Shown piece after piece: positions 1 through 3,000 of a DNA stretch of 64,000 bases. The stretch comes from Escherichia coli. GTDB lineage: Bacteria > Pseudomonadota > Gammaproteobacteria > Enterobacterales > Enterobacteriaceae. The stretch lies in assembly GCF_001677475.2 (NCBI RefSeq), contig NZ_CP015229.1, one strand, 5' to 3'. The position numbers are program-made. The first letter of the stretch is position 1. Every line of letters begins with the position of its first letter.

Positions 1-3000
1 AAAAAATTCGCTCGGTGTACCGCGAAAGCGACATCATACCGGGAGAGCAGACAGCCACCAGCATACTGAAGCAGCGCACAAAAAATATTGTGCTATCGCC
101 TCACGTCCACCAGCAACAGAACTCACCGCAGGAAAAGGCGGTTGTCAGCATTGCTGTTGATCCGGAGTCTCCGGAATCTTTCATGAAGCGACCTAAACGT
201 CGCCGTTGGGTAAATGAGAAATACACTCGCTGGGTAAAGACACAGCCGTGTGCGTGTTGTGGTCAACCAGCCGACGATCCCCATCACCTGATTGGTCATG
301 GTCAGGGCGGAATGGGAACAAAATCCCACGATATTTTCACGCTACCGCTGTATCGGGAGCATCACAACGAGCTTCATGCGGATCCGCTGGCGTTCGAAGA
401 AAAGCATGGTTCCCAGATTGATTTAATTTTTCGTTTTCTTGATCGCGCCTTTGCAACCGGCGTGCTCGGGTAAAAGAGGTTACTGATGCGTATAGAATTT
501 GTTTTGCCTTACCCGCCGACGGTGAACACCTACTGGCGACGCCGTGGCAGCACGTATTTTATATCGGAAGCCGGTAAGCGTTATCGCCGTGATGTGGCAC
601 TTATTGTTCGCCAGCAGCGGCTGAAATTAAATCTGTCCGGAAGGCTGGCGATAAAGGTTATCACAGAGCCGCCGGATAAGCGCCGTCGTGATCTGGACAA
701 TATCCTGAAAGCACCGCTGGATGCGCTGACGCATGCGGGGCTTCTCATAGACGACGAGCAGTTTGATGAAATCAATATTGTGCGCGGTCTGCCTGTTCCT
801 GGTGGGCGGCTGGGGATAAAAATCACAGAGCTGGAGTGCGCATGAATAACCAGTATTTACAGTTTGTTCGTGAGCAGCTCATTATCGCCACCGCCGATTT
901 GAGTGGGGCAACAAAAGGCCAGCTTGAAGCCTGGCTGGAGAATGCCATGTTCGATACAGGACGTTACAGGCGAAAAAAAATCCGGTACCGCGATGAAGTG
1001 ACTGGAAAAATGATCACGCGGGATAATCCACCAATCCCGGGGAAACAATCGCTGGCAAAGGGGACGTCAATTCCTCTGGTAAGTCAGGTTGAGTTTTCGA
1101 CATCATCATGGCGACGGGCAGTTCTGTCTCTTGAAGAACATCACAAAACCTGGTTGTTGTGGTGTTATAGCGGGAGTATTTGCTGGGAGTATCAGGTCAC
1201 CATAACCCGCAGGGCATGGGAAGAGTTTAAGGCTCGTTCTGGCAACAGGAAAATTGCAGAGAAAACACGGGAACGCCTGAAAAAATTAATCTGGCTGGCG
1301 GCGCAGGCAGTAAAAGCAGAACTTTTTGGTGGAGAAGGTTATGAATACCAGGATCTGGCATTACTGGCGGGAATAACAACCAAAAACTGGTCCAAAACAT
1401 TTACTGGTCACTGGGTTGCAATGAAACACATTTTTCATCAGCTGGATAGCGAAGCTTTATTGTTTGCGGCGAGAACACGTTCGAAACAAAAGACGGTATT
1501 GTCTAGGCAAGGTATTGCAAAAGTAGATTAAAAGGCATATATTTCGTGAAAATCTGATATTTTGCCGATTTTGTACGCGATGGCAAAGTAAGCAAAAAAA
1601 ACCTGTCGCCTGGCAGGTTTTTTTATGCCAGAAAAACGGTACAGAACATTAAACGCGCTGGTGGTTGCGAATACCGGTCTTTCAGCTTGCTGGCTTTTTC
1701 GACAAGAGGTATTGGTGTGTCACGTTAACCAGAAAAGGGAAAAAGACATGCTAAAACAGCAGGATATGACCGAAACCGCCAGAGTGGTATTTAATGAATT
1801 AAGCGTCACCGAACCGGCGACAGTCGGGGAGATTGCTCAGAATACTTACCTTTCACGCGAACGCTGTCAGTTAATACTGACCCAGCTTGTTATGGCGGGT
1901 CTGGCAGATTATCAGTTCGGTTGTTACAGACGCCTTCCGCAGTGAAGGCTTTTTTATTTGTGGTAATGGGCGGCTGGTGGGTGTTAGCGGCACCTGTCAG
2001 TCATGCTCTTATGTGTTGATGAGAATTTACCTTTTGGGGCTATAATTGAGCCAACCAATTGCTAATTAAAGTAAAATTATAATGGCTGTTGTCTGTTCAG
2101 TTATCATGGTTTGCTCCCCAATTAATATTTTTCTTGAAAAGGATAAGTTGTCACTTAAGCCCGGCTCAGTCGTTCTGGCCACCAAATGCATCAGGGAGCT
2201 GTTCCTTATGCATTATGGCAAAGTTAAAATTGTCGATATAAACCATTCCATAGTAAGTCAATATCTGGAAAGTCAGCATAAGCTGACGAGGACTCGTCTG
2301 ACTGACATTCCGCTTTACCTGTTCCTGGAACCCAACAATCCTGCGTTGGCTGCGGCTTTAATTACCAGCCAGAGATTTTCCGGAGATACCACGGATATGT
2401 TTCTTATGATGGCCTGCCTGTCGCTGTTTGAATCAGATGAACGGATGTCATTATTTTTAAGTGGATGTTTATCCAGTATAAGTGCCAAAGTCAGAGCGAT
2501 AATTCAAACAGATATATCTGCAAACTGGATGCTCGGTGCGATTGCGTTACGCCTGCATATGAGTGAGAGTTTGTTAAAGATAAAACTGAAAAATGAAGGG
2601 CATATGTTCAGTCGCTTGTTGCTGGAAGAGCGGATGCGGGTTGCTGTAAATATGTTATGTTCCCGGGATGGGTATGGACAGACAGTGGCAGAAAAATGCG
2701 GTTATTCAAGTAGGTCCTATTTTATCTCTGTATTTCACCGCTATTATGGCTTCCCGCCAGACAGATATGTATCTATGCAAGGGCTTGATTTTTGATTTCA
2801 TCTGATTATTATTTTCGGCCCGGCCCTTTAGCTCAGTGGTGAGAGCGAGCGGCTCATAACCGCCAGGTCGCTGGTTCAAATCCAGCATGGGCCACCATAA
2901 CATACCGCCATTAGCTCATCAGGAAGAGCAGACGACACGATAACAGGGTTGTTGGTGCGGGGTTCGAGTCCTCGATGGCGGTCCATTATCTGCATCATGC

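Follow-up and report, generated by a model that had tools for sequence, protein, structure and literature searches.

A tRNA-like gene without an anticodon loop between ileZ and argO of an Escherichia coli prophage

In Shiga toxin (Stx) phages such as Stx2a_WGPS8 and VT2-Sakai, the slot between the tRNA genes ileZ and argO is occupied by argN, which encodes tRNA-Arg(UCG). Here we describe the element that occupies the same slot in an Escherichia coli prophage (assembly GCF_001677475.2, contig NZ_CP015229.1). It lies at positions 2905–2985 of a 64,000-nucleotide (nt) stretch of that contig, which we refer to as the window, and we number the three members of the trio slots 1 to 3. Two further groups of described genes are relevant to it. 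The first is represented by a gene of the Yersinia phage YeP3, recorded as 'tRNA-OTHER' with the record note tRNA-Pseudo-TTG. The second consists of phage tRNAs that resist nucleases, tRNA-Thr-UGU in the case of P2 Old and tRNA-Lys-UUU in that of PARIS AriB; variants of the anticodon loop have also been proposed to evade VapC, PrrC and colicins (PMC12445682, PMC10264068). Two reports bear on the trio itself: a survey paper found only two tRNA genes in Stx2e phages (PMC7366253), and in a tRNA-seq preprint canonical argN expressed from pRARE2 in BL21 was recovered as fragments only (bioRxiv 10.1101/2025.08.20.671396).

The slot-2 element of the window joins the two ends of argN to a centre from a different phage allele, and most of its sister copies are decayed. 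We consider it probable that the element is a non-decoding pseudo-tRNA, a recombination product of prophage alleles that is carried between two useful tRNAs.

Anatomy of the slot-2 element

The acceptor stem pairs CCGCCAT (2905–2911) with ATGGCGG (2975–2981) in seven of seven Watson-Crick pairs and is followed by U8 and A9 (2912–2913). The D stem, GCTC/GAGC (2914–2917/2926–2929), closes a D loop, ATCAGGAA, that contains G18, G19 and A20. The T stem, CGGGG/CCTCG (2958–2962/2970–2974), closes the loop TTCGAGT, and a discriminator T (2982) and an encoded CCA (2983–2985) complete the 3′ end. Several hallmarks of a canonical tRNA are present: a 7-base-pair (bp) acceptor stem with discriminator, a D arm with G18 G19, and a T arm with the GTTCRA loop. 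Each of the three genes of the trio has one copy of the T-arm motif, and the window contains no others. The original prediction, made from the sequence alone, had placed a tRNA-like gene with acceptor, D and T arms and CCA here, and parsing of the sequence gave exactly the same coordinates. The likeness to a tRNA gene is evidently not due to chance, because the ends are identical to those of argN from Stx phages and because the NCBI Prokaryotic Genome Annotation Pipeline (PGAP) gives the same 81-nt sequence the label 'tRNA-OTHER' in about 60 complete E. coli genomes. PGAP makes use of tRNAscan-SE.

The centre of the element is different. The D and T stems are separated by 28 nt (2930–2957), which the original prediction had counted as 27 nt. 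When all 5-bp stems in this stretch were enumerated, none had the features of a canonical anticodon arm, which begins one base past the D stem and closes a 7-nt loop in which position 33 is U and position 37 a purine. Only one stem from the enumeration, CGAUA/UGUUG, closes a loop of 7 nt. This weak stem is offset by 7 nt from the D arm and would place C at position 33, which disqualifies it as a standard anticodon arm. The earlier statement that no standard arm can form was borne out in this way, whereas its companion, that only weak pairings with loops of 11–14 nt are available, was not. The minimum-energy structure from RNAfold contains an AUAAC/GUUGU stem, extendable to CGAUAAC/GUUGUUG (5–7 bp), with a 3-nt loop, and this is also the hairpin that homology supports. 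In the DNA, 2938–2957 reads as CG, ATAAC (2940–2944), the AGG loop (2945–2947), GTTGT (2948–2952) and TGGTG (2953–2957). The fold energy of the whole element is not unusual (z = −1.48).

Gene-finding tools gave a consistent picture. At default settings ARAGORN called the two neighbours only and nothing at 2905–2985, and the Rfam tRNA model RF00005, which has a gathering score of 29 bits, had no match on 2880–3010 even at E ≤ 10. Permissive Rfam searches of the same interval matched mascRNA (a 17-nt match to the T arm, E = 1.9) and a CRISPR repeat (E = 4.3), both of which we regard as noise. The high-scoring canonical call that would have contradicted the prediction was absent from ARAGORN and Rfam alike, and from PGAP, with its 'tRNA-OTHER'; the flanking genes, predicted to be canonical, are so, with anticodons CAT and TCT (Table 1).

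With lowered thresholds ARAGORN did find the exact coordinates, as a 'tRNA-???' with the 4-base anticodon aaca, and in its intron mode it reported them as 'Cys(aca) with 4-nt intron'. Together with the 5-bp pairings that can be drawn around loops of 11, 12 or 13 nt, these calls would make the element an unusual decoder, with an expanded 11–13-nt loop or a short intron that is removed, for example a frameshift or nonsense suppressor. This is hardly credible. None of the expanded-loop or intron readings has both U33 and a purine at position 37, and the preferred, homology-supported fold has a 3-nt loop; on these grounds we reject them. The two calls themselves appear only below the default thresholds and are artefacts, and the decayed sister copies described below also speak against decoding. 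We know of no short spliced introns of this kind in bacteria. Judged from its sequence, the element cannot read a codon.

Mosaic origin from two phage alleles

The two ends of the element are those of argN. Aligned against annotated argN genes, the element shows no difference in acceptor stem, T arm, discriminator or CCA and little in the D arm; essentially all of the divergence falls at 2930–2957, the 28 nt that separate the D stem from the T stem. Comparison with argN, which had been proposed as a check, was decisive for both ends; it did not settle the centre, whose source is another allele within this family of phage tRNAs.

That allele is seen in phage YeP3 and in 13 IMG/VR contigs, where the same scaffold carries the arm CG-ATAAC-[loop]-GTTGT-AGGTG. 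The counterpart in the window consists of AGACGACA followed by CG-ATAAC-AGG-GTTGT-TGGTG. At the non-loop positions, comprising the stem, the two bases before it and the variable loop, the two arms are identical at 16 of 17. Relative to the YeP3-type arm, the loop measures 3 nt instead of 7 and an extra 8 nt follow the D stem, a net gain of 4 nt; in the YeP3-type relatives GAGC runs directly into CG-ATAAC. Because RNAfold independently picks the same hairpin that YeP3 homology indicates, we interpret the centre as the remnant anticodon arm of a sister allele and not as an enlarged loop. An unusual extended loop had been one of the options first considered, and it gives way here to a collapsed 3-nt loop with an 8-nt insertion 5′ of the stem.

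Recombinants between such alleles are visible. In one (L095) the canonical 3′ strand follows a variant 5′ part, another (L213) joins a 5′ half with C7 to a 3′ half with A66, and each centre type was found with each T-arm type, in all four combinations. In E. coli 08-00022 (NZ_CP013662.1) the flanks are ~99% identical to those of the window around a different slot-2-to-terminator cassette. This cassette has the order X-Thr-Gly and is ~330 nt longer, and the exchange is bounded by ileZ and the terminator. Its slot-2 gene (L466, 1598–1677) lies between tRNA-Ile and tRNA-Thr and is Lys-like, with a CCTTTAA loop and a mismatch in the D stem; it has no PGAP annotation. An intermediate with a YeP3-type arm, a 2–4-nt loop and no insertion was not found in IMG/VR.

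The replaced segment consists of the anticodon arm and variable loop, which is a classic target of integrases, and at some related loci the argO copy is broken right past the anticodon loop. Both observations would fit a scar of site-specific recombination or foreign insertion in argN, made for example by an integrase at the anticodon loop. We think this very improbable, since stem, linker and variable loop of the centre all have their counterparts in the anticodon arm of the sister allele. Moreover, no second copy or donor of the replacement core was present in the window with up to three mismatches allowed, and the 107 IMG/VR contigs that contain the core have it always in slot 2 of the trio and in no other context. 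Among 100,044 species-representative genomes the core had a single match, in Photobacterium. We attribute that match to chance: the surrounding sequence is ordinary and contains no tRNA, and one match is the count expected by chance for the pattern.

The history that we propose begins with the argN scaffold, which would have supplied the acceptor stem, D arm, T arm, discriminator and CCA. A divergent sister allele with the arm CG-ATAAC/GTTGT-NGGTG would have contributed the centre by recombination. Loss of four bases would then have reduced the loop of the centre to 3 nt and removed the anticodon, and 8 nt would have been gained past the D stem. The resulting RNA presumably shares a transcript with ileZ and argO. 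Because the full acceptor/T-arm helix and a normal elbow are retained, RNase P, together with the 3′-end processing enzymes, would probably still release it. The identity elements of E. coli arginyl-tRNA synthetase (ArgRS) are C35 and U/G36, of which argN has C35 and G36; as C35 and U/G36 have been lost from the element, it is probably not charged. The best explanation for its persistence would be that it hitch-hikes between two useful tRNAs, not that it has a function of its own.

Constraint on slot 2 in related prophages

We distinguished two forms of the replaced element. Type A has the replaced centre and an intact T arm like that of the window, and type B has the same centre with the T loop replaced by poly-G. 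The 107 IMG/VR contigs with the core comprise about 15 of type A and about 90 of type B. In type B the poly-G tract varies in length from 4 to 13 G, and there are further changes at U8 (U8G) and in the acceptor stem, where C4G, G69A and G72A are unpaired. Among 5,426 complete E. coli genomes, type B accounts for ~1,617 records at ≥95% identity (~30% of the genomes), all unannotated, and type A for ~68 records. Two of three type A alleles contain an uncompensated stem mismatch. The centre is polymorphic at a single position, where a change from G to C modifies the predicted pairing with no compensation, and no compensatory change was seen anywhere in the A/B lineage. This pattern points to relaxed purifying selection in the A/B lineage, of which the window copy is itself an intact member.

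We then considered the trio as a whole, using 75 complete trios sampled without bias, with ileZ and argO as the sole anchors. ARAGORN called ileZ in all 75 and argO in ~71, and it called the middle gene, as Arg-TCG, in 48. Mean pairwise divergence per nt was 0.002 for ileZ, 0.052 for argO, 0.16 for the middle slot and 0.19–0.20 for the intergenic spacers; the middle slot diverges nearly as far as spacer DNA. In the full sample of 79 loci the middle gene was fully canonical at 37 and had the replaced centre at 21, and degeneracy of the argN slot affects about half of the prophages sampled. Slot 3 showed changes of its own. In 19 of 281 trios argO was broken just past the anticodon loop, between …CTTCTAAGCA and GCTGTGGTTGCACTCC…, and in 17 of 281 its 3′ CCA was replaced by CTA, which indicates that argO, too, has been lost in some prophages.

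Several lines of evidence converge on a pseudo-tRNA. No tool found an anticodon arm, and PGAP assigned 'tRNA-OTHER'; the Stx2e survey counts two tRNAs, as does the annotation of phiP27, the closest phage record (96% identity), which lists ileZ and argO only. The structure is mosaic, with argN ends, a YeP3-type centre and visible recombinants. Constraint appears relaxed in the A/B lineage, and the slot is generally degenerate. Finally, even canonical argN was seen only as fragments by tRNA-seq, and the core is absent from the species representatives apart from the chance match. The element combines clear descent from a tRNA gene with loss of the decoding element, and of the options first put forward it is the pseudo-tRNA that the missing anticodon loop and the outcomes of the tools and PGAP favour; on another of those options, a tRNA-derived regulatory element, the data speak neither for nor against.

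Four observations weigh against this interpretation. The window allele is the most intact of its kind, with perfect stems throughout, the T loop, G18 G19 and CCA all present. The 45-nt centre is identical in types A and B although their flanks differ. The slot-2 element persists in phiP27, an inducible phage. And in a wider family of phage genes, slot 2 holds a strongly conserved, covarying scaffold with a free loop.

We sampled this family through the C7–G66 version of the scaffold, leaving the centre free. Its members follow immediately after a CAT tRNA in a temperate-phage cluster and share the scaffold CCGCCA[C/T]-TA-GCTC...CG[A/G]GG-TTCGAGN-...-TGGCGG-N-CCA, to which the window element also conforms. 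The arms seen in slot 2 include canonical Arg-TCT and Arg-TCG arms and a 'Lys' form with C33 and a CCTTTAA loop. Two further groups had no Rfam tRNA call at the gathering score: group 4 (YeP3-type, ATAAC/GTTGT), with A33 and loops of 5–8 nt, and group 5, of 73–74 nt, with loops of only 5 or 6 nt and 12 different loops among 17 alleles. The same scaffold recurs in slot 2, after the CAT tRNA, across phages whose flanks cannot be aligned (distance ~0.47 within groups 4 and 5). Within these groups the unconstrained scaffold positions differ by 8–10% and the loops by 36–44%. Over four stems and 48 distinct stem sets, 96.5% of cells were paired, and the covariation score was 0.254, compared with 0.126 in shuffles (0 of 500 reached the observed value) and ≤0.086 in slid controls, for a set in which the search patterns fix 22 nt, the anticodon-stem parse takes the best pairing and genuine tRNAs are included. 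Compensatory changes affect all five anticodon-stem pairs and the acceptor pair 7–66. A comparison of loop change between phages with near-identical flanks yielded zero pairs from the short-loop groups.

A scaffold that is kept while the loop is free suggests selection for tRNA shape apart from decoding, and the element could then be a functional, non-decoding tRNA-like RNA. Its shape could serve as processing punctuation, with RNase P separating ileZ from argO, or it could act by mimicry, binding enzymes that target tRNAs, for example the nucleases of defence systems or modification enzymes. The constancy of the scaffold across unalignable flanks, with far more variable loops, and a covariation above that of shuffles and slid controls argue for such a role, as does the retention of all stems and tertiary-contact bases in the window allele. 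Phage tRNA clusters are also known to take part in tRNA-nuclease conflicts (PMC10264068; PMC12445682; PMC11464382). We nevertheless judge a functional RNA unlikely for the window copy. Type B, the most abundant sister, lacks the T loop, and two of three type A alleles have uncompensated mismatches, from which it appears that tRNA shape is not maintained in this lineage. The covariation, moreover, comes from a set with the properties just given, and in an experimental study the rescue tRNA, tRNA-Thr6, was found to withstand cleavage and to stand in for the host tRNA, with no indication of competitive inhibition (PMC12445682).

A broader form of the same idea is that slot 2 of temperate enterobacterial phage clusters houses a family of tRNA-shaped RNAs kept for their scaffold and not for decoding. 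The loop could then be a fast-changing module that tunes evasion or binding of defence nucleases, or it could be irrelevant, and the loop-less copy of the window would be the extreme of the family, not dead DNA. We regard this generalization as doubtful at best, and continue to favour a pseudo-tRNA in the window.

The family contains two other kinds of unusual allele. The slot-2 genes of phage Evi (L331, 602–678) and PPompW (L332, 602–677), and further alleles such as L274 and L286, have a G3–U70 wobble in the acceptor stem (3′ strand …TGGTGG). G3–U70 is the main identity element of alanyl-tRNA synthetase, and these alleles, if expressed, might be charged with alanine despite their Lys- or Arg-type anticodons. 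In two others (L338, loop CATTATT; L405, loop TTTAT) ARAGORN reports the anticodon UUA ('tRNA-Stop'), which resembles an ochre suppressor. Other alleles with 5-nt loops would present AAA, GAA or UAA if the closing C-G pair opened, giving a C-U-NNN-U-G loop on a 4-bp stem.

Prophage setting and comparison with described tRNA genes

The region belongs to the late part of a lambdoid prophage, with genes for DUF968, RusA, antiterminator Q and an AraC-type regulator, the three tRNA-like genes, and then TerB-like, DUF3927, holin and lysozyme genes; no stx gene was found in the window. Features of the trio are listed in Table 1. The promoter remains a candidate, as such sites are no more frequent in the region than expected from shuffles. 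In the strong terminator-like hairpin, six of the seven stem pairs are G-C, and TTTTTT follows.

Table 1 Features of the tRNA trio and of the slot-2 element in the window.
Feature	Position	Strand	Basis or remarks
Sigma-70-like promoter candidate, TTGATT-16-TATTAT	2785–2812	+	9/12 consensus positions; immediately 5′ of the trio
ileZ-type tRNA, anticodon CAT (annotated tRNA-Ile or tRNA-Met), slot 1	2822–2897	+	ARAGORN (Met/Ile2-type, CAT); Rfam tRNA 68.1 bits
argN-derived tRNA-like gene without anticodon loop, 81 nt, slot 2	2905–2985	+	
Slot 2: acceptor 5′ strand, U8 A9 and complete D arm	2905–2929	+	argN-like except for D-loop variation (alignment with canonical argN)
Slot 2: 8-nt insertion AGACGACA, from D stem to apparent remnant anticodon stem	2930–2937	+	Absent in YeP3-type relatives
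Slot 2: apparent remnant anticodon arm and variable loop	2938–2957	+	YeP3-type arm match; RNAfold hairpin
Slot 2: T arm, acceptor 3′ strand, discriminator T and CCA	2958–2985	+	Identical to argN
argO tRNA-Arg, anticodon TCT, slot 3	2999–3075	+	ARAGORN; Rfam tRNA 71.7 bits
Intrinsic terminator-like hairpin, GGCTCGC-TTTT-GCGGGCC	3089–3106, with T tract to 3112	+	Ends the tRNA operon

The ileZ gene of the window differs from the consensus allele (246 of 281 loci) by a compensatory double change in the anticodon stem, from A-U to G-C at 2852 and 2860, and by an A-to-T change at 2888 that creates a U6–U67 mismatch in the acceptor stem; its Rfam score is still 68 bits. Downstream of the trio, 3877–4052 (+) is a strong match to the Rfam small RNA STnc100 (93.7 bits, E = 5.6e-19), between the DUF3927 gene and an IraM-like open reading frame, and it ends in a terminator-like hairpin at 4030–4047; a related locus (L359) has a weaker STnc100 match 3′ of its tRNA cluster. 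The open reading frame (4097–4432, minus strand) encodes 111 amino acids, and the homologous position in E. coli 08-00022 is annotated 'anti-adapter protein IraM', a correspondence of position only.

Over the 3 kb from 1500 to 4500, the best complete E. coli genome in the collection reached at most 94.7% identity, and the 104 nt around 2905–2985 were 100% identical in 18 genomes among the matches listed. The 3-kb module is either a new mosaic or derived from a source strain outside the genome collection.

Compared with argN, with which it shares its slot and A20 in the D arm, the window element is 81 nt long instead of 77. Its centre is 28 nt instead of 23, its D loop is one base shorter, and it has no TCG anticodon: the CTTCGAA loop in which argN carries TCG is absent. 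In contrast to argN, it is not called as a tRNA. If the element is a pseudo-tRNA, the trio would yield two working tRNAs and not three, in agreement with the two-tRNA reports for Stx2e phages, and arguments about codon supply by this prophage should leave out the decoding of CGA and CGG by argN.

The closest likeness to the centre is found in the YeP3 gene and its IMG/VR relatives, which have the same ATAAC/GTTGT stem after CG, with AGGTG where the window has TGGTG. These genes, too, are non-canonical; they have A33, and their scores lie below the Rfam gathering threshold. They differ from it in their 7-nt loop (5, 6 or 8 nt in some relatives), in having no 8-nt insertion, and in the pair 7–66, which is C-G in the YeP3-type genes and U-A in the window. 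The PGAP label 'tRNA-OTHER' is silent on origin, whereas the mosaic, the collapse of the loop, the insertion and the decayed sister form have been worked out here. The element itself is ordinary and had already been flagged by annotation pipelines; the part worth following is the pattern in the family.

The nuclease-resistant phage tRNAs, finally, resemble the window element in that they reside in phage tRNA clusters and in that their differences from host tRNAs are centred on the anticodon arm; in related clusters, moreover, Thr(TGT) adjoins slot 2. Those tRNAs, however, do decode, and they take over from a host tRNA that has been cleaved, which an element without an anticodon could not do. 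Given the conflicts over tRNA between phages and nucleases, the slot-2 family offers a cheap and well-defined set of candidates for non-decoding roles.

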